NCBI GenBank assembly: GCA_019058315.1 | Contig: JAHPZH010000005.1 | Span: 64,001-128,000, forward strand | Length of the DNA stretch: 64,000 nt | From: Candidatus Helarchaeota archaeon | GTDB taxonomy: Archaea; Asgardarchaeota; Lokiarchaeia; Helarchaeales; RDOG01 | Direction of reading: 5' to 3' | Shown here: positions 17,208-34,934 of the stretch, in pieces | How positions within the stretch are numbered: position 1 is the stretch's first letter | How the letters are laid out: each line of letters opens with the position of its first letter | The notes under the pieces: model-generated | The model's database searches: none | The model's input: the letters and a program-made list of their open reading frames with translations, nothing else | Told to the model about the DNA's origin: nothing | Position numbers and translations under genes: made by a program

Positions 17208-20200
17208 ATGGGAGATTTCAAGATGAGAATTAATAATTTTAAAAGAAAAGGAAAGATTTTCACAATTCTGATTATCATGCTTATTAGTTTTTCAAACATT
17301 CATTATATCTTTCAGAAAAATCAGCTTGATCCATATAATTTAGCATTATTTACAAATATTTTTACTTCTAATATAAGAATGCCTTCTAATGATGGTCCAT
17401 TTTCCACTAAGTCCTCCTCTAGTGATGTCATTGAGGGTAATGGAGGAAAGTTAGACACTTTATTATATGAAAATATTAGTGGTCAAGTTCTTTCTTGTGA
17501 TACTTCTTCTGATTTTTCTATTTATACAAATGGATGGAATATAACCAAAACAGATCTAATTTTCACAAATGTTAAGGCACCAACAGATATAGATATTGAA
17601 ATATCAGAACCATTTGCGGGTGAACATAGATTGGATACTTTAAGAGCGATGTCATTTACTGTAGGAAGCGTTACCTATTTAAAGAAAATAAATGTTAATT
17701 TGCGATTAAAAAAACTCTACCCTGGTAATGATTTAGATTTATCTGTATTTAATACAAAAGCTACTGGGGAACCCAATAATATTATTTATAATGAAGGATT
17801 TGATTTAGATAGCTATTCTGATGGTTGGATTGAATTAAATTTAAGTTCGGATGTCCTATTGGACCCTGCTGATACTAATAATAGTAAATTTTTCATAGGG
17901 TTAAAAGAAGGTTCTATTTTACCTTCTCCTCAAGTCTATTGGTATTATTTAAATGATCTCTCTACCCCAGATGGTTCAAATGAAGGTGATGACTATTCTT
18001 ACAGTTTTGGAATGTGGACTTCTAATGATGTAGATTATACTTTAGGTCTCACATTAGATACTAATACATTACCATCAAATATAGAATTAAAAGTGAATGG
18101 TATTAATGTGGAGAATTTACAAATAGGTAATGGTACTTGGAATTCATCTGTTTTATATATTGGACCTAATGTTACTTTTAATGTCGAAGCAAATACTTCA
18201 GCGAGATTTGATGTAAATTGGACATGTCAATTTATAAATCAAACATTATCTAATACTTATTTTATTTCTAATGCGAGTAAATCAATTGTCAATTGGAATT
18301 CATCTATTCCAGCTAAATTTCATGCTAATTCATATGCTAGAGGCATTAATATGACAATACCCCTAGATTGGAATATTACTGAAGTAATATATGATTCTAG
18401 CTCACATTTATCTTGGGTTAATATAACAGAAAATGGTAAAAAAATTAATATTATATCCAATGTTTTTAATTCTACCTGGATAGCAGTTTGTATTGGACCA
18501 AACTATGTACGTGAAATAAGCTTAGAAAGAAAGGTTGATTCTAGCTTCACTCCTGTTAACGGTCCAGTTAATGGAACAGATACTATTAGAATAAACGCAT
18601 CTATAAAAGACGGTAAGGGTATTGAAATAATTAATGGGAATGGAAATTTATCTATTTTTAATCCAGAAGAAACTCTAAATTATATTGATCATACACCCCC
18701 AAACAGTACCCATGCTTTAAATGGAATTATAAGTTTTACACCTTGGCGAATTAATTTAACTGGAACAATGGGTGGAAATTATACAATTCAAGTAGTATGG
18801 TATAACCAGACAGAAGTGGGGATAAATGTTACTTCTATTGATATTAAATCAATTCCAACTCAATTAACATTGATTTATAATACCATATCGGCTAATACAG
18901 GGGATCCAATTGATGCTATAATATATTATAACGACTCATATTGGGGATATGGTATTCCAAATGCTAATTTTTATTTAATTAATAACTATACTTCTGGTTA
19001 CCATTTTGATTTTACTGTAACTCCATTATCACCAATGGGTAATTATTCAATTGCAATTTCTACAGCTACATTAACCGCAGGCTCTTATGAATTTATTATT
19101 ATTGCTAATAAATCAGTATATAATACATCAACTGTTAATATCACATTTACTATTCAAGGGAATAAATCTTATGCTTGGATTGTTTCTGGAGCTACACCAG
19201 TTGGACCGTTACTTGGTGGAAGAACCTTAGATGATGGATCTTTTGTTTACGATAATTACACAACAACTCCTTTAAATGATCCCTACTGGGATGATACTTC
19301 TCATAAACTTACAATTTATTACAATGATACTGTAGGAAATCCTATTACAATCGAAGATGTTGATCTGGTTGAAATCAGATGGGATAATAACGAGACAGAC
19401 ATTATCCCAACTTTAGTGGGATCTGGCTTATATAATGTAACCATTGATACAACAGGAATTACTGCTGGAATACATTTCTTTTCAATCATTATGCAAACTT
19501 CTAATTATTATAGAGCATATTTGAATGTGAGTGTAACTGTAAAACCCGTTCCTACTCAAGTTGACCCCGGATTATATGGAAATGTTACTCAATATGAAGG
19601 AGAGGATTTAGAATTCTGGGTGGCATATTTAGATGTTTATCATTCAAATCAACGGATAGAATCTCCACCAGCCATTGTAAAATATAATATTACGGGCTTT
19701 CCAAATATAAATGGAACCATGACATATATAGGAGCCCCAAATTTTGCTTATCGTGGTGAATTTAACCTTGGAGACTTAAGTCTGGGATCTTATAACTTAA
19801 CCATCTATGCTAGTGCTGGCACTGAATACCTTGAAGCAATTAGAAATATAACCGTTAATGTAATTCCAAAATATAATGTCTCTTTAAACTTAATTGATAT
19901 TCCATTTGGTATTAGAGTTGGAGAGGAATTAATCATTAGAGCAAAATTAATTAATGATATTACAGGTGATCCTCTCAAGTATGTGCCCATAAATGTAAAA
20001 ATTACTTTTCTTGATAGTCAAAATGGAACCATATCAGAATTAGAAGCGGTTCTAATCACAAATAATAATGGAACAATAGAAGAATCCTTAATTGTTCCTC
20101 AAAATGTGAAATATGCTAATATTTCTTTATTTTATAACGGGGATGTCAATGTAACTTCGGCAGTAAATAACACAATTCTTAATATCGCCCCCAAAAGATC

Positions 20201-21920
20201 AGTTCATTTGATAGTATTTTCTCCAACACCTACAATATGGGTGGGGGAACTTTTATTTATTGGTGCAAGTTTAACATACGGAGATACTGGGGAAGCGATT
20301 TTTGATGGATCTGTTGAGTTTGAAATAATATTTTTTGGTGAAAGAATTCTCCGATTTACTCAGATTGGAAAAACAGGTTCTGATGGAATTACTTATATAA
20401 GTTTTCCTATTCCATCAGATATTTCGGGAGTTTATTTAATTATGATAAATGCACGACATTCTGGGTCAAATACCGAAGCTTCAACTACTTCAAATCTGTT
20501 TCCTATTAATCTGCTATCAACAGGAAGAATTTTTATAGAAAACATATGGCTTTTTATAGCAATAATTGGAGCGGTTTCTGCTATGGGGACTTATAAAACA
20601 TGGAATTATTTGAGAAATAGAGGGTGGAAGAAGAAGATTGACCATTTATTTATAATAACGCATGGGGGTTCACCTATAAAAGAGTGGAAAATGGGGGGAG
20701 CTATACTAGACGCAACTTTGGTTTCGGGAGCCTTAAGCGGGATTGCATCTATTGTACGAGAAATGACAAAAAGTGTTAAAAAATTAACTTCAATTGATCA
20801 TGAAGATAAAAAATTAATATTTGCTTATGGTAAATTTGTAATTGGGGTATTAATTACTGAAAAAGATCAACCAATAATACATAAAAAACTAGATAAATTT
20901 GTAGATAATTTTGAATCAAAGTATTTTTATTATTTATCCTCTTGGGATGGTAATTTAAAGTATTTTCAAGATGCAGATGATTTATTAGTTGATATTTTCC
21001 CATTTGCAATCCCAGAGACTGTTCAAGAAAAGATTAAATTATATCCAGATATTATTAAAAAGGAAAATAGAATAAGAGAATTAAATATTGAAGCGGGACA
21101 TCTTCTTATGGAAAATAAACCAGCTATGGCAATTGAATCTTATATAGTTGCTGCTAAAATAGCTATTGAAATTGGAGACTTAGAAATATTTGAGAATTTC
21201 ATTATAAATATAAATAATCTTCAAAAAAGACTCTCAAAATTTGAAAAAAGACCAATGAGAAAATTAGATATTAAAACCGAAACTAAAGATAAAAAGAATC
21301 TTGCAACTAATATCGAAAAAATTCAAAAAGCAATAAAAATCTCAGACTTCCTTACAGCATTAAAATTAACTACAAAAAATGCAAACATTTACATGGACCT
21401 AGGGCAATATGAAATTGTTTCAGAATTGTTTCAAAAGATCAATGAATATGGTAAAAAACACAAATTGAAAATGAGAGAGATTCAGTTAAAAGAAAGAACT
21501 CAAAAAACCACAGATAAGATCAACAAGTTGAAAATGAAAGCTGAACTAGAGATTGAAAATGGAAATTTTTTAAAAGCTGCTGATAAGTATAATGAGGCTG
21601 CTATACTCGCAATACAAAATAATGATAGAGATAACTTTCAAGACCTTATGTCAAAAGTCGAAAAATATCAAAAAACTGAAGAAGAGACTACTTTGAAAGC
21701 AGAAAAAGAACGACAATTACTAATTCTTAAGGAATCAATACCGAGGATATTAGCAGAGGCAGAATCAGCAAAACTATCTGGTGATTATGAAAAAATAATT
21801 GAATTATATTTAAAAGTAGCCAATATCAATCAAAGTATAGGTCATATGGAAAATTTTATGAAATATATAACAATAGCGAAAGAATATAGGACAAAACTTG
21901 AAAATTTTACAAACAAATGA
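17208..21920 (+). CDS. Giant single-pass surface protein: Ig-like/beta-sandwich ectodomain, TM helix, cytoplasmic longin and SNAP-like TPR domains
   Basis: N-terminal signal/anchor; N/T/S-rich beta repeats; TM 'IWLFIAIIGAVSAMGTY' (~20543-20595); longin 'IDHLFIITHGGSPI...LVSGALSGIASIVREM...WDGNLKYF'; TPR-like 'KAADKYNEAA'. Confidence 0.8.
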   Translation: MGDFKMRINNFKRKGKIFTILIIMLISFSNIHYIFQKNQLDPYNLALFTNIFTSNIRMPSNDGPFSTKSSSSDVIEGNGGKLDTLLYENISGQVLSCDTSSDFSIYTNGWNITKTDLIFTNVKAPTDIDIEISEPFAGEHRLDTLRAMSFTVGSVTYLKKINVNLRLKKLYPGNDLDLSVFNTKATGEPNNIIYNEGFDLDSYSDGWIELNLSSDVLLDPADTNNSKFFIGLKEGSILPSPQVYWYYLNDLSTPDGSNEGDDYSYSFGMWTSNDVDYTLGLTLDTNTLPSNIELKVNGINVENLQIGNGTWNSSVLYIGPNVTFNVEANTSARFDVNWTCQFINQTLSNTYFISNASKSIVNWNSSIPAKFHANSYARGINMTIPLDWNITEVIYDSSSHLSWVNITENGKKINIISNVFNSTWIAVCIGPNYVREISLERKVDSSFTPVNGPVNGTDTIRINASIKDGKGIEIINGNGNLSIFNPEETLNYIDHTPPNSTHALNGIISFTPWRINLTGTMGGNYTIQVVWYNQTEVGINVTSIDIKSIPTQLTLIYNTISANTGDPIDAIIYYNDSYWGYGIPNANFYLINNYTSGYHFDFTVTPLSPMGNYSIAISTATLTAGSYEFIIIANKSVYNTSTVNITFTIQGNKSYAWIVSGATPVGPLLGGRTLDDGSFVYDNYTTTPLNDPYWDDTSHKLTIYYNDTVGNPITIEDVDLVEIRWDNNETDIIPTLVGSGLYNVTIDTTGITAGIHFFSIIMQTSNYYRAYLNVSVTVKPVPTQVDPGLYGNVTQYEGEDLEFWVAYLDVYHSNQRIESPPAIVKYNITGFPNINGTMTYIGAPNFAYRGEFNLGDLSLGSYNLTIYASAGTEYLEAIRNITVNVIPKYNVSLNLIDIPFGIRVGEELIIRAKLINDITGDPLKYVPINVKITFLDSQNGTISELEAVLITNNNGTIEESLIVPQNVKYANISLFYNGDVNVTSAVNNTILNIAPKRSVHLIVFSPTPTIWVGELLFIGASLTYGDTGEAIFDGSVEFEIIFFGERILRFTQIGKTGSDGITYISFPIPSDISGVYLIMINARHSGSNTEASTTSNLFPINLLSTGRIFIENIWLFIAIIGAVSAMGTYKTWNYLRNRGWKKKIDHLFIITHGGSPIKEWKMGGAILDATLVSGALSGIASIVREMTKSVKKLTSIDHEDKKLIFAYGKFVIGVLITEKDQPIIHKKLDKFVDNFESKYFYYLSSWDGNLKYFQDADDLLVDIFPFAIPETVQEKIKLYPDIIKKENRIRELNIEAGHLLMENKPAMAIESYIVAAKIAIEIGDLEIFENFIININNLQKRLSKFEKRPMRKLDIKTETKDKKNLATNIEKIQKAIKISDFLTALKLTTKNANIYMDLGQYEIVSELFQKINEYGKKHKLKMREIQLKERTQKTTDKINKLKMKAELEIENGNFLKAADKYNEAAILAIQNNDRDNFQDLMSKVEKYQKTEEETTLKAEKERQLLILKESIPRILAEAESAKLSGDYEKIIELYLKVANINQSIGHMENFMKYITIAKEYRTKLENFTNK

Positions 21921-21932
21921 GGGCGTGTTATA

Positions 21933-22451
21933 TTGGAGAAAATAATTTATAAAATTCTTTTATTAGGTGATCCTGGAGTAGGTAAAACAGCTCTTATAAC
22001 TCAATATATTGATAATAGATTTATAACTGATTATAAAGCCACTCTTGGATTTGATATCTTTATCAAAAAAATTATAGGATCCAAAGCAGAATTTTCATTA
22101 GCAATCTGGGATCTCGCGGGACAAGAGAAATATACATCCTTAAAACAATCATATTATGAAGGTGCCCAGGGAATTATTATGGTATATGATGTAACAGACC
22201 GAGAAAGCTATAAAAATATAATACAGTGGTTAACAGAATTGCAAAAAGTAGTAAAAACAATTCCTATTATGTTAGTAGGAAATAAAATTGATTTAACTGA
22301 CGAAATTAAAATCAATACAGAGGATGGGCAACGACTTAAAACAAGAATTAAAGCAATTAATTTTTATGAGACTTCAGCAAAAACTGGACATAATGTTAAT
22401 ACAATTTTTGAAGAACTTGCAGATATTATTAATAAACATTCATCGATATAG
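21933..22451 (+). CDS. Rab-like small GTPase
   Basis: G1 GDPGVGKT, switch I DYKATLG, G3 WDLAGQE, G4 NKID, G5 ETSAK; no C-terminal prenylation Cys. Confidence 0.95.
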   Translation: MEKIIYKILLLGDPGVGKTALITQYIDNRFITDYKATLGFDIFIKKIIGSKAEFSLAIWDLAGQEKYTSLKQSYYEGAQGIIMVYDVTDRESYKNIIQWLTELQKVVKTIPIMLVGNKIDLTDEIKINTEDGQRLKTRIKAINFYETSAKTGHNVNTIFEELADIINKHSSI

Positions 22452-22927: not shown

Positions 22928-25588
22928 ATGGCTTATATGAAAGATGAACTTCGAGAAGAAGACTCTAATATCGAGCAAAAATTAAAAGAAACTCAAATTA
23001 AGAGTGAGTTTGATTATCAAAATTTATTTAATGATATTCCTTGTGCTCTTTGGGTTATAAATTTTTCAGATATTAAATTGTACATTGATGAATTACGTAA
23101 TAAAGGAATTAAAGATTTTAGATCTTTTTTTAAAAATGACCCTGATTTTTATTCAACTTGTGTTTCTTTCATGAATATTATAGATGTCAACAGAGCAGCT
23201 ATACAATTATATCAAGCCAAAAACAAGGAGGAAGTTTTACAATATTTAAATGATACCTTTTGCAAAGAATCTTTAGATTTATTTTTAGAAGGAATTATTT
23301 CTATAATTGAGGGTAATTTACCGTTTGAAGGCGAGACTATAATTCAAACTATAAAGGGAAATAAAATTAATGTATTTTATAATTGGTTTATAGCTTCTGG
23401 TTTTGAAAAAAGCTTATCTAAAGTATTTGTAAGTCTCCATGATATTAGTGACCGGAAACAAATAGAATTATTATTACGTAAAGAACGAGATTTAGTCCAA
23501 AAATATCTAGATTTAATTGGAGTTCTTCTTATAACTTTAAATAAAAAAGGTGAAATAACCCTTATCAATCAAAAAGGATATCAGACTTTAGGATATGAAG
23601 AACAAGAGCTTATTGGTAAAAATTGGTTTGATAATTGTTTACCAGAACGAAATATAGAGGAAGTGAAATTAGTTTTTCAAAAATTAGTGGTAGGAGAAAT
23701 TGAACCAGTTGAATATTATGAAAATCCAATTATAACTAAAAGTGGTGAAGAAAGAATTATCGCTTGGCATAATACTGTTTTGACAGATGATATTGGAAAT
23801 ATTATTGGAATATTAAGTTCTGGAGAGGATATTACTGAGCGAATAAGAGGAGAAAAAAAATTAGCAAACCAAATGTATTTAATTGAGTCTATAAATACAA
23901 TATTAAAAGAAGCTTTAAGATTAGACAGTGAAATAAATGTTGCCAAAATGTGTCTAATTTTTGCTGAGGAGTTGACGAATAGCAAATTTGGCTTTATTGG
24001 TGAAATAAATGAAGATGGATATTTCGATACTATTGCTTTAAGTAATCCAGGATGGGAGGCGTGCACCATGGAAAAAACCGCTGCAATAAAATTACTTAAA
24101 AACATGGAGATTCGCGGCATTTGGGGGGAAGTTTTAAAAAGTGGGAAAACTTTAATAGCAGATGATCCCGAATCTCATCCTTCAAGTGTTGGTACTCCTG
24201 TTGGTCACCCAAGATTAACAAGTTTTTTAGGAGTTCCGTTATTTTACGCTGGAAATACATTTGGAATGATTGCTGTGGCTAATAAAGAAATAGAGTATAA
24301 TTCTGATGATCAGCAAGCCATAGAAACTCTTTCAATATCATTCATGGAAGCTTTGATGAATAAAAGAGCAGAAATAAAACTAAAAAATGCCAAAGAAACA
24401 CTTTTAGAAGCGCAAAAAATAGCTCATATAGGAAATTGGGATTGGAATATAGTTACTAATGAATTAAGTTGGTCTGATGAAATTTACCGCATATTCGGGC
24501 TTGCTCCACAAGAATTTGGAGCAACATATGAAGCATTTTTAAATAGTGTCCATCCCGACGATAGAGAATTTGTTACAAAATCCGTTAATGAAGCCATTTA
24601 TGATAAAAAACCTTACTCTATTGATCATCGTATTATTTTACCTGATGGGACACAACGAATAGTACATGAACTAGGTAAAGTTACATTTGATAAGGATGAT
24701 AAACCAATTAGAATGTTAGGAACTGTCCAAGATATCACCGAATTAAAGCTAATTGAAAATGAATTAAAGAAACATAGGGACAACCTTGAAGAATTAGTTT
24801 TAGAGCGTACAAGAGAATTGGAATTAGCAAATAAAAAACTTCAATTAGAAATTGAACAAAGAATAAAAGCTGAAAAAGATCTGGAACTATTCGTATATGC
24901 AGTTTCTCATGAAATAAGAACACCAATTTCAGTTTTAGTCCAATCTATAGATAATTTAGAGGTTTATGGAGAAAAATTATCAGAGAATTTGAAATCAAAA
25001 TTAATAAAAACGATGTCTAGAAATACATCATTATTATCCGAATTAATAGAGGATCTTTTATTAGCTTCAAGGATAGAAAGAACAGAAATAGAATTAAAGT
25101 GGGAAAATTACAAGCTATTCGATGTTTTAAAAGATGTATTAGACCAAATGGAACCTCGTTACAAATCAAGAGGAATAAAAATTGATACAGATGTGGATAT
25201 AAATATTCAATTATTTGGTGATATCAAACGTATTGCACAGATCTTTCGAATATTTATTGATAATGCTATAAAATATTCAAAAGAAAGATCACTGATAAAG
25301 ATTAAAGTATTTAATAAATATAAAGGAGAATTTAATCCGAAATCAATTGATGGTGTTTTAATTCAGTTCATTGATAATGGAATAGGTATTAAGAAGGAAG
25401 ATATCCCTAATTTGTTTAAAAAATATTTCAGATCTAAAGACGCAATGAATATTCCTGGTACAGGTTTAGGACTAACTATTGCAAAAACTCTAACTTATTA
25501 TCATCAAGGAGAAATATTTGTAGAAAGTGATTATGGTAAAGGAACGACTTTTTCCATTTTTCTTCCCAGATTAGAGGAACAACCATAA
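22928..25588 (+). CDS. Cytoplasmic PAS/GAF sensor histidine kinase
   Basis: Three PAS/PAC segments, GAF 'HPRLTSFLGVPL', H-box SHEIRTP, N-box DNAIKYS, G boxes DNGIGI and GTGLGL. Confidence 0.95.
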   Translation: MAYMKDELREEDSNIEQKLKETQIKSEFDYQNLFNDIPCALWVINFSDIKLYIDELRNKGIKDFRSFFKNDPDFYSTCVSFMNIIDVNRAAIQLYQAKNKEEVLQYLNDTFCKESLDLFLEGIISIIEGNLPFEGETIIQTIKGNKINVFYNWFIASGFEKSLSKVFVSLHDISDRKQIELLLRKERDLVQKYLDLIGVLLITLNKKGEITLINQKGYQTLGYEEQELIGKNWFDNCLPERNIEEVKLVFQKLVVGEIEPVEYYENPIITKSGEERIIAWHNTVLTDDIGNIIGILSSGEDITERIRGEKKLANQMYLIESINTILKEALRLDSEINVAKMCLIFAEELTNSKFGFIGEINEDGYFDTIALSNPGWEACTMEKTAAIKLLKNMEIRGIWGEVLKSGKTLIADDPESHPSSVGTPVGHPRLTSFLGVPLFYAGNTFGMIAVANKEIEYNSDDQQAIETLSISFMEALMNKRAEIKLKNAKETLLEAQKIAHIGNWDWNIVTNELSWSDEIYRIFGLAPQEFGATYEAFLNSVHPDDREFVTKSVNEAIYDKKPYSIDHRIILPDGTQRIVHELGKVTFDKDDKPIRMLGTVQDITELKLIENELKKHRDNLEELVLERTRELELANKKLQLEIEQRIKAEKDLELFVYAVSHEIRTPISVLVQSIDNLEVYGEKLSENLKSKLIKTMSRNTSLLSELIEDLLLASRIERTEIELKWENYKLFDVLKDVLDQMEPRYKSRGIKIDTDVDINIQLFGDIKRIAQIFRIFIDNAIKYSKERSLIKIKVFNKYKGEFNPKSIDGVLIQFIDNGIGIKKEDIPNLFKKYFRSKDAMNIPGTGLGLTIAKTLTYYHQGEIFVESDYGKGTTFSIFLPRLEEQP

Positions 25589-25648
25589 AAAAATATATAT
25601 AGAAAATGAAATGTAATATATCTGATGAAATAAAAAAGGAGTTTCAGC

Positions 25649-26536
25649 TTGAAGCCATTAATACTATGTGTAGATGACAATGAAGATATTTTATTAAATC
25701 TACGGTTAACATTAGAATTTAATGATTATGAAGTAATCACGGGAAAAAATGGCATAGAGGGTATAATCATATTATCCGAACTCGGGCGACTTCCAGACAT
25801 CATAATAAGTGATATAATGATGCCCGAAATGAATGGATATGATTTCTTTAAAAAAGTTTCTGAAAACTCGAAGTGGAATCGCATTCCATTTTTATTTTTA
25901 ACAGCTCGAACTTCTCCAACAGATGTTAGATTTGGCAAAATGTTAGGTGTTGATGATTATCTTACTAAACCCTTTAAAAAAGAAGATTTGATGGCCATAA
26001 TTGCTGGAAAACTTGCTAGAAGAAGAAAAACAGAAGAAGTTAGTGAAAAAGTTGAAGAAGTTCTCTCCTCTTTAAAAATTGATGAAAAACCTTCAATCTC
26101 TATTGAAGAAAAATTTTTAGTAAATTTATTATTAGTGTTTTGGGACGATAAAACGGGTCCTAGGGTTTTAAATTACTATCCAAAAGACATTAAATTACCT
26201 TTTTCTGTTGATAAAATAGGTGTTCAATTATATAATTCTATAGTTTCTATTTATGGACAAGGAAAAGTTGCTGAAGCTCAAGGTATATTATTAAATATAA
26301 AAAATATCGAGAGGGATGGTTTTATTTATTTTGATTCATATCCAGATAGTTCAATCAGAGGAGGTGAACAACAATATATGTTGGGGGTTATTGCTCCAAA
26401 GATTAATTATTTTGAATCTTTAAAAATTGGTGAACGCTTTAAACATATATCTTCACATATTAAATTAAAGGAAGATTGGGATTTTAAAAGTCATTGGGAA
26501 GAAATTGCAAATCTTTTATCAACTCCTTCACTGTAG
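25649..26536 (+). CDS. Response regulator (receiver) fused to a longin/uDENN-like domain
   Basis: Receiver: VDDN, SDIMMP, FLTA, YLTKPF; C-terminal 'LLLVFWDDKTGPRVLNYYP'. Confidence 0.85.
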   Translation: MKPLILCVDDNEDILLNLRLTLEFNDYEVITGKNGIEGIIILSELGRLPDIIISDIMMPEMNGYDFFKKVSENSKWNRIPFLFLTARTSPTDVRFGKMLGVDDYLTKPFKKEDLMAIIAGKLARRRKTEEVSEKVEEVLSSLKIDEKPSISIEEKFLVNLLLVFWDDKTGPRVLNYYPKDIKLPFSVDKIGVQLYNSIVSIYGQGKVAEAQGILLNIKNIERDGFIYFDSYPDSSIRGGEQQYMLGVIAPKINYFESLKIGERFKHISSHIKLKEDWDFKSHWEEIANLLSTPSL

Positions 26537-26961: not shown

Positions 26962-27888
26962 TCAATCCTTTCTACTTAATAAATTTTCAGCTTTATAGTG
27001 TATAATTGTTGCTCCATGCTTATAATATTCTTTTAATGTTATCCAATTTTTTGAAGGATATTCAAACTCTTTAAGAGATCCAAGTATAGAAGAACCAAGC
27101 CAAGAAGAATATTGTTCAGCTTGAGTGATTTTAATAGGAAAGGTCGCTAAATTTTCTAATTCCTTTTGTAATCGTGCTTTCATACCCTTAATTTTTAACC
27201 CTGATACTATTATGTTCTTGGATAAATCTTCTCTAATAGTTGAATCTAGTTTCATTAGGGTATCAAAAATTTCTACGTCCAAAGGTTTTATCTTATCTTT
27301 ACCCGTCATTTTAGGTTTAAAATAGATTTCTGGAGCTAAAAATAATTCATCTAATTCGAGTGTAGTACCATCAGGTAATGTATAAGATTTTTTACTACTT
27401 TCCTTATCAGGATCTAGTGCTACAAAACAAAGTTTTTCGCGAATATCTCTTAAAATTTCCCTTTCTGCTGAAGTACGAAAATCATAACTCTTTTTTTTTA
27501 GGATCTTTTGTAGATAACTCGTTACATCTTCAATTCCTAAATCTATTTTTTTGATAAAATCAGTTAATGGGTAAGAATCCCAAACTGGTACGATATAAGT
27601 TGGATTTTTTAACCTAATAACTAACCCAGTAGTTTTTCCAACACACATTGCATCTGCCAAAGCTGCATTGACTAAAAGTATAGCCGGAATATTAAAATCT
27701 TCAAATAGAAAGCTACAAATCTTTTCCCTTTGTGACCTAGAAGTTAGTGGATGCTCGATAAGGATTAATCCGTGTTCAGATGGATCGATTTTTAAATCAT
27801 TATAGAAAATATAATGAACAAATTTCTTTATAGCATTAAAATCGACTATTTCTTCATTAATTATTGGAAATGTATTTCTTAAAACCAT
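26962..27888 (-). CDS. N-terminally truncated, divergent actin-related protein (corresponds to actin residues ~64 to end)
   Basis: 'HYIFYNDLKIDPSEH', 'REKICSFLFEDFNIPA', 'TSAEREILRDIREKLCFVALD', 'SYTLPDG', 'LAPE', 'YSSWLGSSILGSL', 'WITLKEY'; ATG preceded by SD GGTGA overlapping the upstream stop. Confidence 0.9.
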   Translation of the reverse strand: MVLRNTFPIINEEIVDFNAIKKFVHYIFYNDLKIDPSEHGLILIEHPLTSRSQREKICSFLFEDFNIPAILLVNAALADAMCVGKTTGLVIRLKNPTYIVPVWDSYPLTDFIKKIDLGIEDVTSYLQKILKKKSYDFRTSAEREILRDIREKLCFVALDPDKESSKKSYTLPDGTTLELDELFLAPEIYFKPKMTGKDKIKPLDVEIFDTLMKLDSTIREDLSKNIIVSGLKIKGMKARLQKELENLATFPIKITQAEQYSSWLGSSILGSLKEFEYPSKNWITLKEYYKHGATIIHYKAENLLSRKD

Positions 27889-27894
27889 AAGATT

Positions 27895-28932
27895 TCACCT
27901 CAAAAATTTTTGTAACAACTCTTTCATACTCTTCGGAAGTTGTCCATTAGATTCTAAATCTAAAATAAAATCTTCTACAAGATCTACTTGGCTTAGTGCT
28001 ATGGCAACAATGAGGTCTGGAATGTCTGGAGTATTTTCCAGCATAAAATGTTCTCCTTGCGTGATATTTGCAATTTCTTTAAAGATTTTTTCAGTTTTAC
28101 TATCTTTTACAATTTGTATAGTGTAAACTTTAACCTCATTAGAAGCTAACTTTTTTGATTCTTCTCTCCAATTCAATTTCTTTGGACATTGGGAAGGATC
28201 GTGTGGGGGAGCGTCCGCGATTAATATTGCGATCTTTTTAACATTTACCCATTGAAAATCTTGAAGAGAGCTTAATGCATCCTCAACCGCCTCTGGAATA
28301 TCTCCCCCACCATCTGCAGTCCATTCCTTTATAAAACTTGTTAGTTCTGAATAATATTGGGATTCTGTAAACGGGTAACATTTTAGTAAATAAGAACTTT
28401 CTTCGTCACAATGATCACGATAGGTTAAGGCACCAATTCGAACTCCTGGAATTTTTTCTGATAGAAAGTAAAGCATTCTAGCAATTTCCTTTTTTATGGC
28501 CCCAAGAGCAGATCCCATAGAACCTGTAGAATCAGCCACTACAACTAAGTCAAGCATTCCTAAAGATTCAATCTTTTCTTTTATCATTCTACACATATCT
28601 TTGTCATTTAAAGATTCCATAAAAGCTAAAGCTCGTTGATAAGCCTTGTAAGCATAACCCATCTTTTTTATTGATTCAAATTCTCTAGCAGCCTGTAACA
28701 TTGTTTTTCCGGCTTTTTCAGGTTCTCCTTGTTTATCTTGTAATGATGCTATCGAAACTAGAGTAATTACGGCTTGTAGCTTTAGATTTCGATTAATAAA
28801 TGTTTCACGTAATTTCATATAATTATTAATAGCTTTTTTCCAAGCTTTATTTTCCATTTTCAGGCAAATTTTATCCGAAATCGCTTTCAATTCATACTCA
28901 ATTTCACTTAACATTCCATTATCACAATCCAA
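27895..28932 (-). CDS. TPR/SNAP-like + vWA domain protein (paralogue 2)
   Basis: MIDAS DSTGSM, 'YRDH', 'GGGDIPEAV', 'IADAPPH'; N-terminal 'AYKAYQRAL'. Confidence 0.85.
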   Translation of the reverse strand: MDCDNGMLSEIEYELKAISDKICLKMENKAWKKAINNYMKLRETFINRNLKLQAVITLVSIASLQDKQGEPEKAGKTMLQAAREFESIKKMGYAYKAYQRALAFMESLNDKDMCRMIKEKIESLGMLDLVVVADSTGSMGSALGAIKKEIARMLYFLSEKIPGVRIGALTYRDHCDEESSYLLKCYPFTESQYYSELTSFIKEWTADGGGDIPEAVEDALSSLQDFQWVNVKKIAILIADAPPHDPSQCPKKLNWREESKKLASNEVKVYTIQIVKDSKTEKIFKEIANITQGEHFMLENTPDIPDLIVAIALSQVDLVEDFILDLESNGQLPKSMKELLQKFLR

Positions 28933-28936
28933 GGAA

Positions 28937-29965
28937 TCATATTAATTCTTTAAGGAGCTCCCTTTTACTTTCTGTGAGTTTTCCTTCAGATTCTATATCA
29001 ATAATAAAATCTTCTGCTAAATCAAATTGATGTAATGCTATTGCTACGATTAGATCTGGTAAATCAGCTGTGTCGGATAAAAGAAAAGATTTTGATTCTG
29101 TTATCCTAGCAATTTCTTTGAAACTTTCTATAGTTCTCACATCATTACCACAAATCACAGAATAAACTTTTATTTCATCATTTGCTAATTTTGCAGAAAT
29201 TTTTTTCCAGTCTAATTTATTAGGACATTTTTCAGGGGGGTGTGGGGGTTCATCAGCTATTAATATTGATATTTTTTTAACAGATTCCCATTCGTAACCT
29301 TTTTGAAGGTAGTCTAATGCGTCTGCAACTGCCTCACCACCATCTCCACCCCCACCATCAGGCACCCAGCTATCTACAAAAGAAACCAATTTGGCTATTT
29401 CAGAAGATACTTGTTCAATGAATGGTTGAGCTTTAATCAGATAAGAAGTATTTTCGTTACAGTGGTCTCGGTAAGTTAAAGCACCTATACGAATGCCTGG
29501 GATTTTATCTGACATCTTATATAGCATTTTCGCTATTTCTTTTCTAATAGAATCAAGACCACTTCCCATCGATCCTGTAGAGTCGATCACAATTACTAAA
29601 TCTAGCATTCCGAGAGATTCTATTTTCTGCTGAATATTTTTTACTTTACCAATTTGATCACATGATATCATAAGGTCTAGAGCTCTTTGATATGCCTTGA
29701 ATGCATAACCCATTTTTCTATGTTCTTCGAATTCATTAGCAGCACTTAACATAATATTTCCAGCTTTTTCGACCTGACCAATCGTTTCTAACAACGAAGC
29801 AATACTCACAAGCGTTAAAGTGGCTTGAGAGTTTAATTTAGCTTCAAGAAAATGCTCACGTATTCTCTCATAGTCTTTAATTGCAACGATCCAAGCTTTA
29901 TTGCACATATTAAAATGAATTTCTTCTGATAATGTATTCATTTCATATTCTATTTCTTTTAGCAT
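28937..29965 (-). CDS. TPR/SNAP-like + vWA domain protein (paralogue 1)
   Basis: DSTGSM, YRDH, GGGGDGGEAV, IADEPPH; collinear with 27895-28932. Confidence 0.85.
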   Translation of the reverse strand: MLKEIEYEMNTLSEEIHFNMCNKAWIVAIKDYERIREHFLEAKLNSQATLTLVSIASLLETIGQVEKAGNIMLSAANEFEEHRKMGYAFKAYQRALDLMISCDQIGKVKNIQQKIESLGMLDLVIVIDSTGSMGSGLDSIRKEIAKMLYKMSDKIPGIRIGALTYRDHCNENTSYLIKAQPFIEQVSSEIAKLVSFVDSWVPDGGGGDGGEAVADALDYLQKGYEWESVKKISILIADEPPHPPEKCPNKLDWKKISAKLANDEIKVYSVICGNDVRTIESFKEIARITESKSFLLSDTADLPDLIVAIALHQFDLAEDFIIDIESEGKLTESKRELLKELI

Positions 29966-29981
29966 TTTGAATTACAGACCT

Positions 29982-32900
29982 TTACTCTATTTGGAGTATA
30001 TTTACTGAAGAGTTTGCTCTTAAATCTACATTATACATTGGATAACCCACCGTCTCCTTTACAATTATTTCTCCCGGTTTTGTTGCAGTCATATTATAAG
30101 TTAAGGTTATTGATCCATCCAATTCATTTAGATAAAGATTCAATTTGTCACTAGTTAATTTATATGATGTGATTTGATATTCTTCCACCAGTTTCTTTAA
30201 TGATTGTTCCACAACTAAAAAACCAGCGGGGATAGGTTCCTCTATTGCAAACATTCCCTGTTTTTCGGTTGTTGTTATATTAAGTTTAACACTTATGGAA
30301 TCATTCTGTGCAACTTTATTTGAACTGAAATCTCTTGTTATTGTTAACATTTTGGGTTTTAGAAGATATTCTTTAGGATACCATGCTTCTATTGTTAAAT
30401 CGTACACTAATAAGCCCTCACCATTCTTTTCTAATATCAATTTATTTTCAGAATTTAGATTATCTAACGGAATATTTCTCATATCATAAACAATATGTTC
30501 TAAAGTGTCTTCATTTACTTCGAATTCTCCTATTACCTGTTTATTAAAAATTGCCTGTGTTAGAAAATTCGTTTTTTCGCTTCTTGCGCAATTAGAAAGA
30601 CAAAGAATAGCGGCTATAGTATCTGATGTTGTACTCCATCCACCACCTTTAGCGCGATTAGCCATAATATAATTTAAGACCCTTTGAACATTTACTGGAT
30701 CTCCTCCTGCAATATTTAAAGCTAGTGCAGCATAAGCTGTAGATTCAACTTTTCCAGCTAGTGATGAACCAACGTCCCAATAGACGAAATCGCCTTCATT
30801 ATGAGCTGATGTATTTAATTTTTCTATAAGGAGGTTCAATTCCTTATTGTATTTATTTGACCCTTCTTTAATGATGTCGATTATTAAATAGGCTAATAGG
30901 TTTGGGTCGTTCGTTCTCTTTGAGGAGAGGATAGCGTTTGATATAATATTTTCTAAAGCTTTGTCAATAATTTCTTGATTTACGTTATATCCAGCTTTTT
31001 TAGCCTCGAGTAATGCTTGTATAACATACGCTGTACAGAAGTCTTTCCCTCGTCTATTTGATTCCCAAGTCCCTTGAGAAGTTTGTATTTTCTTTAATTC
31101 TTCTATTGCAGCATTAATTAGTTTTTTTTCTATAAAAAATCCCGAGTTAATTGTATAAGCCAAACCAAACAATACATAGGCTGTAGTGAAAGGCTCTGAT
31201 TGCTCATTTCCCCAATATCCCCAACCACCACGGTCATTTCGAAGACTTATTAATTGTTGAATACCCTTAGTTGTCATTTCTTCAAATTGTTCTTGGAATT
31301 TGTTAGTAAGCATATTATTTTCTTTTAGCAGATTGTAAACTAGAACGTTAGGTAAAAATTTCGACATAGTTTGTTCTACACAACCATGAGGATATCCTAA
31401 TATCGATTCTAATCCATCCATGCAACCCATTTGATAACCAGGTATCAATGAAAGGCGTGCTTTATAAAAAATTGCGTCTCTTGGTATAGTTGGAGATATA
31501 TTAATAATTTCATCTTCCAAAATAAGTCCCGTATATCTGAAAATATGAGGTTCTCCTTTAGGATTTATTTTTATTTTTTTTCTTAAGACATCAATATGCT
31601 TCGGTGTTTTAGCTTCGATCCAAAATGTCGCCTCACCTGGATTAATTGCTTTCAATTTGAAATCGAGACGTTTCATCCCATTTGCAGGAACGAGAATATT
31701 CCCTTTCGGTATGTCAACTTTTAATTTATATTTATCAGCATTTAAATTAACGTTACATTCTAAGTTTTCTTTTGTTAGATTTGTCAAAATTATTCCAAGT
31801 TGAATATTATCTCCATGAGTTAAAACTGGTGGGATATCAAGTTTTGCAAAAAAATCTTGTTTAACTGTAATTCTATGAGTTCCCATACCTATCTCACAAT
31901 CTTTTGTACTTGCAAACACTGTCAACTCATGACTTGTTATCTGATCTGGTAGCTCTGTTTCTAGCATAGATTGACCATCTGATTCTAGGAATGGAATCCA
32001 AAGAGATGTTTCTGGGAAATTGAATCGAACACTGACCATAGATATTGGGTTTACTGAATCAGTTAAAATTAAACCTAATTTTGCACCCGGCGTACTAGAA
32101 CCCCCAAAGCATCTATGAACAACACTTGGACCGCTTGATTTGCCAGCGACTGAATAAAAACCATAACCTGAACCTGAACTTGTGGTAATACCAATTGTTC
32201 GTTTATAATCCTTAGTGAAAGATCCTCCCCTTAACATCAGCGCTTCTTCTCCAATATAATATTCACGTGAATAATGTTCGACATCGGTCATAATTGACAT
32301 ATATTTTGGATACCCTACTATAGTGGGAAGCACAGAACGAGGACCATCTTCTCCTGCAAAACCCGCATAACTAAAATTCGATCCTAATTCCAAACAGATG
32401 GGGTTTCCTTTTGGATCTTTGTATACTTTCGGTTTTACCTTTTTGAGAGATTTGAATTTTATATCAATTTTTTGAATAAATTTTTGTATTTGCCTTTTAG
32501 AATCACTCTTTATCAACATTTCATTAAGAACTGCTTTTATTTCGTTTGTAAGGGGAGAATCTTTTGTACAAATTGTATTAAAAATCCTTTCGCTAATATT
32601 AATTAAACATTCATCTTCTTGTTCCTTTGTAATATGACCCTCTTTTGATAACTGATGAATATCTGTAACTATTTCTTGATACAAATCAATATTATTATCA
32701 TCGATTTGGCTTATCTCATCTTCTGCAGCTATCATTAAGATGTTATTATCATTTACTAGAATCAAACTTTCAGAAATAATTTTTAAAATATTATAAATGA
32801 GAGTTTTACTGTTTTTTTCTTTATTTTTTTCTGCAATTTCTTGAATAAGTTCAATTATTTTCCTCTTTACAAGCCTATGATTAACATCTTGTATCATCCC

Positions 32901-34934
32901 AGCTTTCTTTGTAATTCTTAGAAATTCAAGCCCTGTACCAACTAACTTAGGATTGAGATAAATATAGTGAATTAGTGCATCTAATAGTGCATTAAAATAT
33001 GGTCCATATTCTTTTGTATCCCAACTCAATATTTCTGAATTATTTTTCTTGATAAATTCCTTTTTAAAAAATATTTCTAATGGAGTTTCAATTTTTCGTC
33101 CTAATTGGAGAACAGATGCATCAACTAACATAGCACCTAAGCAGCATGCTATAGCTTTATCATCTTGTAATATTTTAACTTGAAAATTAGCCTTATTACC
33201 GGGTTGATAAGTGCTTTTATCACTTTCAATATCAATTTTTAGCTCTTTTCTCTCAGGATTTACGTAAATCTTTCTTTCATTTTTTTCTAGGATACCATTT
33301 GATCTAAAAGCATATGTTATAACTTTTAAATTACCCCACATCTTTCTAGTGATTGGAATTTTAAAATCCGCCGTTCCCTCAGTTGCAAGCTTCACTGTTC
33401 TATAAATTATATTCTCCTTCTCGATATCGACATAGATAGGAATATTCTCCCTATCAACAACTGCATTTAAATGTAAAAAATCGTTAATATTTAAGCTAGG
33501 GGATTCTATGTTTGTATTAAGCCATATTTTTGGGTTTTCTTTTTCTCCTTCTTTCTGCTCTTTTTCTTCTTTTATTACTGCTTTTTCAACAGTCAGTCCT
33601 TTGCGGACTGTTTTGGATTCATCTAATAATTCCGATTCAATCATGATATTAATATCAAAATTCTTCTTTTTCTCTGTAGGATAATCAATTTCAAAAGTTA
33701 AGGGACATCTTCCTTCATTATCTGTTTTTGCTACTTTGAATTTTGCATGGTGTTTCAGCTCAGTATCATTTATCGAAGCTAAAACAAAACACTCGTTTAA
33801 TGGGACTTTTTTATTTTCTAGGGTTGGAACTTCTGTTTTAATTATTACTTCTGCTTGTTGACCTGGTTCAATACTTCTCGCCATATCTGTTGTTACGATC
33901 AAAGCTTGCTTTACTGTGCTAATTTTTATTTCCTTATTAGCTTTGCGTTTTAAACTGTCAGTAAGTTCAAATATAATTTTAGATTCTCCCTCTTTCATTT
34001 CAGGAACTTGGAACCTATAAATATATTCTCCTTTTTCATCTGTTTCCCCATAAGTTTGGAGAATTTGTTTATTTTCTGGTGATATAATTTCAATTTTAGC
34101 ATTGGCTTTTTTCACGGGTGCTCCGTAAAAATATTCGGACTTTAATTCGAGTCTAAATTCGTCCCCTATTTTTAGATATTCTGGTTCACATTTTACTTTC
34201 AATTCTATGTCTGGTGGTTGATAATTCTCGATTTTAATTGATTTTTCAGATTTAAAACCTTTAACCGAAACTTTAACTTTATAAACTCCTTCTATTGCCT
34301 CTTCAGCTATTGGAATTTGAAGTTCTCCTATCCCAAATTTAGAATCACATGAAATTTTTCTAATAAGTATCCTATTATTTTGTGGATCAGTTAATGTTAC
34401 TTTAATAGGCTCTTGACTTGGTTGATAAGTACTTCCTAACAGTTTCCAAAGGATAAAACGAATAAGTATCCTCTGTCCTGGCATGTAATAATCACGATCT
34501 GTAATCATATAGCATATATATTCTTCCTCTTTTCTGGTAAGATCCAACCTCAAAGTTTTTTCTTTTCCATCAATTTTAACCTTAATTTCATAAAATTTAT
34601 ATTCAGCATCAAATTCAAATTCCAATGAACCTAAATTATCTGTTAATCCCTTAAAAACAGTTTTATTGCCGTTGATCAACTTTACTTTACAATTAATGGG
34701 AAAAAAGTTCTGATCCATACAAATAATACGGCCAGAAATTTTCTCACCTTCTTCGAACTCCGAATTCATTTTAACAAAAATAAGTGGGGGTTCCCTTAAA
34801 TTCGAAATTTGACTGATCAGACTTTGAACTTTCTCAACATCTATTGAAGTTATTTGATTAAGAATATCCACATCAAGTTTATCTTTTTCTTTAATATTGA
34901 GGAGCCTTTTTAGTTTTTTACATGTTGTATCCAA
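29982..34934 (-). CDS. Alpha-2-macroglobulin/thioester-containing protein without signal peptide; expanded bait region contains actin and GTPase fragments
   Basis: 'TDRDYYMPGQ', 'YFYGAPV', 'SDKSTYQPG', 'LVDASVL', 'RFNFPETSLW', thioester GYPHGCVEQT (CVEQ 31371-31382), 'VESTAYAALA', 'GGWSTTSDT', 'EEPIPAGF'. Confidence 0.92.
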   Translation of the reverse strand: MDTTCKKLKRLLNIKEKDKLDVDILNQITSIDVEKVQSLISQISNLREPPLIFVKMNSEFEEGEKISGRIICMDQNFFPINCKVKLINGNKTVFKGLTDNLGSLEFEFDAEYKFYEIKVKIDGKEKTLRLDLTRKEEEYICYMITDRDYYMPGQRILIRFILWKLLGSTYQPSQEPIKVTLTDPQNNRILIRKISCDSKFGIGELQIPIAEEAIEGVYKVKVSVKGFKSEKSIKIENYQPPDIELKVKCEPEYLKIGDEFRLELKSEYFYGAPVKKANAKIEIISPENKQILQTYGETDEKGEYIYRFQVPEMKEGESKIIFELTDSLKRKANKEIKISTVKQALIVTTDMARSIEPGQQAEVIIKTEVPTLENKKVPLNECFVLASINDTELKHHAKFKVAKTDNEGRCPLTFEIDYPTEKKKNFDINIMIESELLDESKTVRKGLTVEKAVIKEEKEQKEGEKENPKIWLNTNIESPSLNINDFLHLNAVVDRENIPIYVDIEKENIIYRTVKLATEGTADFKIPITRKMWGNLKVITYAFRSNGILEKNERKIYVNPERKELKIDIESDKSTYQPGNKANFQVKILQDDKAIACCLGAMLVDASVLQLGRKIETPLEIFFKKEFIKKNNSEILSWDTKEYGPYFNALLDALIHYIYLNPKLVGTGLEFLRITKKAGMIQDVNHRLVKRKIIELIQEIAEKNKEKNSKTLIYNILKIISESLILVNDNNILMIAAEDEISQIDDNNIDLYQEIVTDIHQLSKEGHITKEQEDECLINISERIFNTICTKDSPLTNEIKAVLNEMLIKSDSKRQIQKFIQKIDIKFKSLKKVKPKVYKDPKGNPICLELGSNFSYAGFAGEDGPRSVLPTIVGYPKYMSIMTDVEHYSREYYIGEEALMLRGGSFTKDYKRTIGITTSSGSGYGFYSVAGKSSGPSVVHRCFGGSSTPGAKLGLILTDSVNPISMVSVRFNFPETSLWIPFLESDGQSMLETELPDQITSHELTVFASTKDCEIGMGTHRITVKQDFFAKLDIPPVLTHGDNIQLGIILTNLTKENLECNVNLNADKYKLKVDIPKGNILVPANGMKRLDFKLKAINPGEATFWIEAKTPKHIDVLRKKIKINPKGEPHIFRYTGLILEDEIINISPTIPRDAIFYKARLSLIPGYQMGCMDGLESILGYPHGCVEQTMSKFLPNVLVYNLLKENNMLTNKFQEQFEEMTTKGIQQLISLRNDRGGWGYWGNEQSEPFTTAYVLFGLAYTINSGFFIEKKLINAAIEELKKIQTSQGTWESNRRGKDFCTAYVIQALLEAKKAGYNVNQEIIDKALENIISNAILSSKRTNDPNLLAYLIIDIIKEGSNKYNKELNLLIEKLNTSAHNEGDFVYWDVGSSLAGKVESTAYAALALNIAGGDPVNVQRVLNYIMANRAKGGGWSTTSDTIAAILCLSNCARSEKTNFLTQAIFNKQVIGEFEVNEDTLEHIVYDMRNIPLDNLNSENKLILEKNGEGLLVYDLTIEAWYPKEYLLKPKMLTITRDFSSNKVAQNDSISVKLNITTTEKQGMFAIEEPIPAGFLVVEQSLKKLVEEYQITSYKLTSDKLNLYLNELDGSITLTYNMTATKPGEIIVKETVGYPMYNVDLRANSSVNILQIE

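Follow-up and report, generated by a model that had tools for sequence, protein, structure and literature searches.

We found that, in a four-gene locus of a Candidatus Helarchaeota archaeon, an actin sequence is divided between two genes, one of which carries its share within the bait region of an A2M-family thioester protein. The locus occupies positions 26962-34934 on the minus strand of the stretch of DNA analysed here (64,000 nucleotides (nt) of contig JAHPZH010000005.1, assembly GCA_019058315.1; hereafter, the window). Its four packed open reading frames (ORFs), of 1650, 342, 345 and 308 amino acids (aa), are separated by gaps of 16, 4 and 6 nt in gene order, and encode the A2M-family protein, two paralogous proteins with a von Willebrand factor A (vWA) domain, and an N-terminally truncated actin homologue (hereafter, the short actin). 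The two actin-derived polypeptides very probably assemble non-covalently into one actin fold on the bait. Our best explanation of the locus as a whole, which we offer as a real possibility short of a probable one, is that the split pseudo-actin is a decoy for a cytoplasmic thioester trap.

The two actin pieces and their thioester carrier

Actin residues are numbered here after the genome's own Lokiactin (contig C5, locus L002), referred to below as the host actin. In the Pfam search, positions 5-55 of the Actin profile were found at residues 844-901 of the A2M-family protein (26.8 bits, compared with a cut-off of 27) and positions 65-408 in the short actin (6e-55), and the complete fold was not present in one polypeptide. 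Alignment with the host actin showed that the A2M piece corresponds to actin residues 7-67, ending with LRG, and that residue 2 of the short actin corresponds to residue 68, leaving neither a gap nor an overlap between the pieces. On the solved Asgard actin 9wc4_A, they cover chain residues 22-90 and 91-396, respectively. In the short actin, subdomain 2 is represented by its last strand only, and the subdomain-1 sheet is without strands 1-3. Since three core strands are absent, the short actin is unlikely to fold alone. When subtilisin or ECP32/protealysin nicks actin in the D-loop, its classic protease-sensitive site, the two fragments remain together in a folded complex, and a split at the D-loop is therefore structurally plausible.

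The protein that carries the N-terminal piece matched five Pfam families above the curated cut-off, namely MG2 (54.7 bits), A2M_BRD (44.1 bits, residues 494-611), A2M (54.3 bits, residues 976-1064), TED (98.4 bits, residues 1172-1447) and bMG10 (37.5 bits). The order of its parts is that of the A2M family: MG domains, bait-region domain, A2M (MG7) domain, TED and a C-terminal MG10/receptor-binding-like region. The actin insert is located exactly between the A2M_BRD and A2M domains. In phmmer searches against solved structures, the A2M body matched metazoan A2M, CD109, A2ML1 and insect TEP1 at E 4e-34 to 4e-27, and the bacterial proteins SaA2M and ECAM more weakly, at E 1e-16 to 3e-15. The thioester motif GC[VTI]EQ was intact in all of the actin-bait A2Ms examined, with GCVEQ at residues 1184-1188 of the window protein. 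Proteins of this family work by cleavage of the bait, which causes a conformational change and exposes the thioester. Preceding the actin piece, we found an all-helical domain of about 220 aa (AlphaFold2 (AF2) pLDDT 70-87), which was present in both groups of loci described below and in all aligned family members. This domain had no match in Pfam or NCBIfam, no paralogue in the genome and no atlas cluster at 0.9 or above, and a fold search returned generic helical-repeat matches only (Z <=10.3, below the level that is meaningful for helical proteins).

The actin-bait A2Ms are predicted to be located in the cytoplasm, because neither a signal peptide nor a lipobox was found. As assessed with a hydropathy scan rather than with SignalP, the Kyte-Doolittle maximum over the first 60 residues was 0.55 in the window protein, as compared with 2.85 in a canonical A2M of the same class; a hydrophobic N-terminal segment was present in this canonical protein of 2082 aa, and in none of the actin-bait A2Ms. 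A separate, widespread A2M family of about 2010-2080 aa was noticed at L029 (G054:C1:2324000-2334000) and in many genomes of the class; its members have an N-terminal signal- or anchor-like segment and a CVEQ thioester but no actin motif, and represent the canonical secreted type in these archaea.

The architecture described above agrees with a sequence-only reading of the same DNA, which had reported four co-directional, tightly packed genes with the same gaps, an A2M-family protein that has an intact thioester and lacks a signal peptide, two vWA paralogues with metal ion-dependent adhesion site (MIDAS) residues, and an actin whose missing N-terminus sits in the A2M bait region. All of these were recovered here, and the two actin pieces proved to be exactly complementary. 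The same reading had treated A2M, vWA and truncated actin as one set. The synteny search that it had called for showed that the set is not unique to one genome: the pairing of A2M and short actin was seen in 14 loci with genomic context, drawn from Asgard genomes and a large protein collection/metagenomes, and the short actin lay directly beside the actin-bait A2M in 14/14. The vWA part of the set did not hold equally, as a vWA gene was found in only 5/14 loci.

The loci fell into two groups, which differ in where the actin is broken. Subtype A, in which the A2M gene is followed by the vWA gene and then by the short-actin gene, comprises the window, L020, L022/L023, L024 (= G268) and L026; P0006 and P0283, for which only the proteins were in view, resemble it. 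The second group (L016, L017, L018, L019, L039, L052, L053, L054 and L055) is without a vWA gene, and its short actins immediately follow or precede the A2M. For subtype A, the last actin residue in the A2M piece is 65-67, and the first in the short actin is 68. In the second group, the A2M piece ends within the D-loop, at about residue 49-53, and is always followed by a Gly-rich hinge, and the short actin resumes at about residue 51-54, sometimes behind an extra N-terminal tail; at L052, for instance, the insert ends with DVE-GG and the short actin begins with MGYTREYY. Because the break point differs between the subtypes while the pieces stay complementary, selection for a complete fold is suggested, and we regard this as the strongest argument that the two pieces complement each other in one fold.

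When 400 Asgard species genomes were searched, 8 matched at E 1e-55 or better, of which 7 carry the module, across five families; the module is thus rare and patchy among Asgard genomes. The eighth genome, G397, has a canonical A2M without the actin motif. It was excluded from the family, as were P0286/P0287, which were also found by A2M similarity and are of the same canonical kind; the G397 protein and P0286 have signal-like N-termini.

An interruption whose position coincides with the D-loop split of the pseudo-actins was noticed in another gene. At L051 (G201:C155, 3150-3300, minus strand), a normal Lokiactin gene is broken in the D-loop, between DVE and HYV, by 32 nt containing a stop, giving two ORFs in different frames. 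Excision of exactly these 32 nt restores a single actin frame, with the two exon edges base-paired around a hairpin (-25.1 kcal/mol, z -3.7). The interruption is a candidate small archaeal mRNA intron, or an indel.

Conservation of the pseudo-actin

The split actin is a fast-evolving pseudo-actin with a decayed ATP site and barbed-end cleft. At the positions of the phosphate-2 loop, the catalytic Gln/His and the adenosine contacts, the short actins were 0-0.47 identical to the Lokiactin consensus, as compared with 0.88-1.0 for the same positions among Lokiactins; the phosphate-1 motif DNGTG reads ELGSN in the window insert. An unbiased scan, segment by segment along the sequence, showed that the most decayed segments are 133-159 (catalytic Gln, cleft and phosphate-2), 163-171 and 345-353, and that the best-kept ones are the subdomain-2 strand 64-72 and the subdomain-4 loop 238-246. 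We take the three decayed segments to form the barbed-end cleft and the two retained ones to be interface faces, by correspondence to eukaryotic F-actin and not to a Lokiactin filament model. In a maximum-likelihood tree, nine short actins were placed on one side of a branch with 98/97 support, apart from all Lokiactins and eukaryotic actins, and their branches were much longer; long-branch effects may contribute.

Constraint is strongest in the D-loop, whose first half does not vary between inserts and is identical or nearly so to that of the host actin. Among nine aligned inserts, invariant columns were found only from strand 3 to the D-loop, with two prolines ahead and then G-Y-P-x-Y-x-x-I-M-T-D. 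The window insert is identical to the genome's own actin at 40/60 positions, and at 26/30 from the D-loop to the subdomain-2 helix, compared with 43% identity for the remainder of the pseudo-actin. Recent gene conversion from the actin gene was considered as the cause of this match and was rejected, as the synonymous sites have diverged: third codon positions were the same in only 15/26 of the identical D-loop/helix residues. The match thus reflects purifying selection at the protein level rather than recent copying. Similarly, in G058, G090 and G139, the D-loop of the host actin and that of the A2M insert agree except for one to a few substitutions. In G197, which belongs to another class, the insert shares three D-loop residues with the Lokiactins of its family (Q for T, D for E and V for T, as compared with the window's class); the comparison was made with same-family actins, as the genome's own actin was not found in its assembly.

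In subtype A, the actin piece is followed by a linker of 45-90 aa that is rich in Gly, Ser and Pro and poorly conserved among subtype-A homologues. The window linker contains GPSVVHRCF, which is identical at 8/9 positions to the last nine residues of the host actin and had there its best non-self match in the whole proteome (E 0.055); degenerate copies were found at the same position in L020, L022, P0006 and P0283. The linker as a whole could be aligned collinearly to actin, mainly to the phosphate-2 strand and the C-terminus, with a chain score of 89 compared with 56 +/- 7 for shuffled sequences (0/300 as high). No collinear actin signal was seen in the linkers of three homologues. A second motif, FTKDYKRTIG, had its best proteome matches in the switch-I regions of small GTPases, many of which it matched in this genome, at E 0.32-1.5, and part of it falls on the actin phosphate-2 strand. 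The sequence-only reading had seen a GTPase look-alike in the bait; at these E-values the match is not statistically secure, and as the stretch fits the actin strand about as well, its identity as a GTPase switch-I mimic is ambiguous.

The resemblance to actin also bears on the assembly of the locus in sequence data. The short-read contigs of four runs end or switch at window positions 32242-32291, where 50 nt that encode the D-loop of the A2M agree with the true actin gene to about 90%. The fragmentation of the locus is explained by this resemblance, and actin-bait A2Ms are likely to be under-assembled in metagenomes. The contig breaks might also be read as signs of an artefact, either a misassembly or a dying actin gene beside an unrelated A2M, and the sequence-only reading had itself named misassembly as a possibility to be checked. 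We consider such an artefact barely conceivable. In the probable source run, one 72-kb contig contains the locus with zero differences; in a second study, contigs that are about 96% identical span all three gene junctions; intact ORFs of the same design occur in at least 14 independent assemblies; and the D-loop is under purifying selection. Among the public runs, none of RNA was listed as holding the locus.

Accessory proteins, neighbouring genes and coordinates

The positions of the genes and their parts are given in Table 1. The two vWA proteins of the window both score above the Pfam VWA cut-off and are 57% identical to each other, and the first is 52-54% identical to the single vWA protein of related loci; the pair is a local duplication of one gene. 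In the AF2 model of the second (pLDDT 94), six N-terminal helices of about 17 residues each (residues 5-123), forming three TPR-like pairs with no Pfam TPR match, are followed by a vWA fold, for which Foldseek found integrin beta I-like domains to be closest (E 7e-9). The MIDAS-type residues D134, T136, S138 and D240 (D-x-T-x-S and a later Asp) were conserved at >=90% among 40 relatives. The full-length architecture forms a single cluster at 50% identity among 1.8 billion representatives, and the vWA domain alone has thousands of relatives, the closest of which are fused to Hsp70, ubiquitin-like, FHA or Ras domains (P0132, P0135, P0139, P0157, P0173 and P0178). Among these partners, Hsp70 is an actin-fold ATPase. 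There are hints that the vWA proteins belong to a cytoplasmic signalling-type family, possibly a conflict family. In each of the 5 subtype-A loci, the vWA gene is positioned after the A2M and before the short actin, and no orthologue was found elsewhere, with the query used, in five genomes whose loci have none. As it is confined to subtype A, the vWA component is accessory rather than part of the system core.

Table 1. Positions of the genes and gene parts of the locus within the window.
Feature	Position	Strand	Basis
A2M-family thioester protein, 1650 aa, predicted cytoplasmic	29982..34934	-	Pfam domains, hydropathy scan; orthologues found
Orphan all-helical domain, A2M residues ~612-835, inserted after the bait-region domain	32430..33101	-	AF2
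Actin N-terminal piece, A2M residues 844-903 = host actin 7-67 (strands 1-3, D-loop, subdomain-2 helix)	32226..32405	-	Pfam, alignment
Linker rich in Gly and Ser, between the actin piece and the A2M (MG7) domain	32031..32225	-	AF2 pLDDT 25-40
Copy of the actin C-terminal peptide, GPSVVHRCF, within the linker	32106..32132	-	Proteome search
Thioester motif GCVEQ, residues 1184-1188	31371..31385	-	Motif search
TPR-like + vWA protein, paralogue 1, 342 aa	28937..29965	-	Pfam VWA 42.9 bits
TPR-like + vWA protein, paralogue 2, 345 aa	27895..28932	-	Pfam VWA 45.9 bits, AF2, Foldseek
N-terminally truncated pseudo-actin, 308 aa, begins at host actin residue 68	26962..27888	-	Pfam Actin 65-408

Several neighbouring genes were also noted. 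In the window (22928-26536) and at the related locus L022 (13670-17148) alike, the module is flanked by genes for a PAS/GAF histidine kinase and for a response regulator whose output domain of about 170 aa has no assigned family. Elsewhere in the window (17208-22451), a Ras/Rab-like small GTPase (Ras 1.4e-54) is encoded 12 nt behind a 1570-aa ORF that has no Pfam family. At two of the loci that are split in the D-loop, L017 (8539-9660) and L018 (3958-5052), a gene for an Abhydrolase_3 alpha/beta-hydrolase follows the A2M on the same strand.

Explanations considered and comparison with known systems

We propose the following mechanism for the module. The A2M bait region would have been rebuilt to hold the helical domain and, behind it, the N-terminal strands and D-loop of a Lokiactin-derived pseudo-actin, the remainder of which would be supplied by the neighbouring gene, so that both pieces join on the bait. 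The resulting ATPase-dead look-alike would display a faithful copy of the D-loop face of the host actin as a decoy. The chain would leave the actin fold near the D-loop, through a Gly hinge, into the A2M body, and a protease or other effector attacking the host actin would cut or disrupt the bait at or just past the D-loop. The A2M would then change shape as do other family members, and its thioester would covalently capture the attacker; in the window's subtype, a TPR-like vWA protein, duplicated in the window, would be an added component. An actin look-alike sits at the bait, the chain exits at the D-loop and the D-loop matches that of the host, and for these reasons an actin-decoy trigger seems the most economical. 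Of the readings considered, such a trap best fits the mechanism of the A2M family, and we assign the function of a decoy trap to the module tentatively. Its extension to guard-type surveillance in the cytoplasm, in which a complement/A2M-like protein with a split actin decoy would fire a covalent trap upon attack by a viral or bacterial effector, is in our view doubtful.

Several observations weigh against the decoy trap. We know of no candidate for the attacking protease in Asgard biology. At the loci viewed, the flanking genes were metabolic or two-component genes and not of a defence type, and none of the four proteins had a match in PADLOC-DB 2.0 at E 0.01 or better; accordingly, of the defence module with a covalent trap that the sequence-only reading had proposed, the trap is retained here for its fit to the family mechanism, and the link to a defence island found no support. 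In some family members, the part of the insert that can be recognised as actin is limited to about 20 residues. Furthermore, since nicked actin stays assembled, a cut inside the folded actin might not free the bait in the window's subtype. Finally, the retention of the D-loop and the subdomain-4 loop, together with the loss of the barbed-end cleft, fits docking onto real actin equally well. In this alternative, the main rival of the decoy trap, the conserved pointed-end face (D-loop and subdomain-4 loop) would bind the barbed face of Lokiactin monomers or filament ends and would thereby place the thioester protein on the cytoskeleton; its role there could be capping, local inhibition of proteases or covalent cross-linking upon a trigger. 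Docking would account for the retention of the strand 64-72 and the loop 238-246, for the decay of the ATP site and of the barbed-end cleft (133-150, 163-171 and 345-353), for a D-loop that is invariant and tracks the host actin, and for the lack of a defence context. However, the insert lies at the one site whose cleavage triggers A2Ms, and simple anchoring would not require that position; where the chain exits at the tip of the D-loop, as in most subtypes, insertion into an actin cleft may be hindered; and the interface residues were assigned after eukaryotic F-actin. We therefore consider docking somewhat unlikely.

The remaining alternatives concern the parts of the module. The actin-like stretch might be no more than a flexible bait peptide, with the short actin acting separately, for example as a regulator that binds elsewhere, and with the matching boundaries as the historical trace of a single rearrangement. 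When the insert was modelled alone, the AF2 pLDDT of the actin piece was 25-40, as would be expected of a flexible peptide; such values are equally expected of a fragment without its partner, and decide nothing. The break point has moved between the subtypes and the pieces are nevertheless complementary, and the short actins are without three core strands, which makes this explanation improbable. The vWA proteins might, on the other hand, form part of a complement-like cascade, in which their MIDAS would recognise the activated thioester protein and the signal would be passed on or amplified, as by factor B or CR3 with C3b/iC3b. The constant place of a MIDAS-type vWA gene in subtype A and a folded helical domain where C3/C4/C5 carry the anaphylatoxin domain are in favor of this analogy, which had been drawn in the sequence-only reading. 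Two findings weigh against it, as no protease domain was found at any locus, leaving the cascade without its protease partner, and the vWA gene is absent from the 9 other loci, five of whose genomes gave no orthologue. In addition, the nearest relatives of the vWA proteins are the cytoplasmic Hsp70, ubiquitin, FHA and Ras fusions and not complement types. We regard such a cascade as highly improbable.

Three aspects of the module would be surprising: an actin fold encoded by two genes, one piece lying inside another protein, with a break point that shifts between lineages while the pieces stay complementary; a thioester protein of the A2M/complement family that is predicted to work inside the cytoplasm; and the occurrence of both in the archaeal group closest to eukaryotes, in which cell architecture depends centrally on the actin cytoskeleton. 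If the decoy reading is true, something in these ecosystems attacks Lokiactin, and the module would offer a tractable way to study how archaea defend themselves inside the cell and where thioester-protein defence came from. Guard-type surveillance, if true, would make this the first split actin found in nature and the first thioester-protein immunity to operate inside cells, placing TEP-type immunity beside the actin cytoskeleton in archaeal relatives of eukaryotes, and docking, if true, would define a new class of actin-end-binding factor. Under either reading, the two genes would provide a natural split-actin pair for structural and engineering work. Our literature search found no description of an A2M with actin in Asgard archaea, of a split actin or of a cytoplasmic archaeal A2M, in agreement with the sequence-only reading, which had held the architecture to be undescribed.

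By its sequence, the carrier protein is a member of the A2M family, well removed from the described ones in its predicted cytoplasmic location, in its split-actin bait and in its obligate partner gene. With the A2M proteins and TEPs (human A2M 6tav, CD109, A2ML1 and TEP1; SaA2M 4u48 and ECAM/YfhM 5a42), it has in common the MG body, bait domain, MG7, TED with CxEQ and MG10-like region. In contrast to them, it has neither a signal peptide nor a lipobox and is predicted to be cytoplasmic, a helical domain of about 220 aa and an actin fragment stand in for the short disordered bait, and a neighbouring gene is needed for the remaining actin. Complement C3/C4/C5 with factor B/CR3 is similar in having a helical domain, at the anaphylatoxin position, near the activating cleavage site, and a MIDAS-type vWA protein, which here is encoded alongside in one subtype only. 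Unlike complement, the module has no convertase protease and no C345C domain, its vWA is absent at most loci, and this vWA is of the cytoplasmic group fused elsewhere to Hsp70, ubiquitin and FHA. As compared with Lokiactin (the solved 'HC1 actin' 9wc4), the two pieces jointly cover the whole fold, with a D-loop and subdomain-2 helix nearly identical to those of the host; they differ from it in that the pseudo-actin is split over two genes, has decayed ATP/catalytic residues and barbed cleft, and forms a faster-evolving, separate group. Protease-nicked actin (subtilisin, ECP32/protealysin), which stays folded as two fragments broken in the D-loop, resembles the D-loop split of most loci, although the break in the module is genetic and the N-terminal fragment is embedded in another protein. 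In concept, the proposed decoy is closest to the integrated decoys of plant NLRs, in which a copy of the host target is built into the sensor and attack on the copy triggers a response; the proteins and the chemistry are unrelated, and an immune role of the module would be by analogy only.

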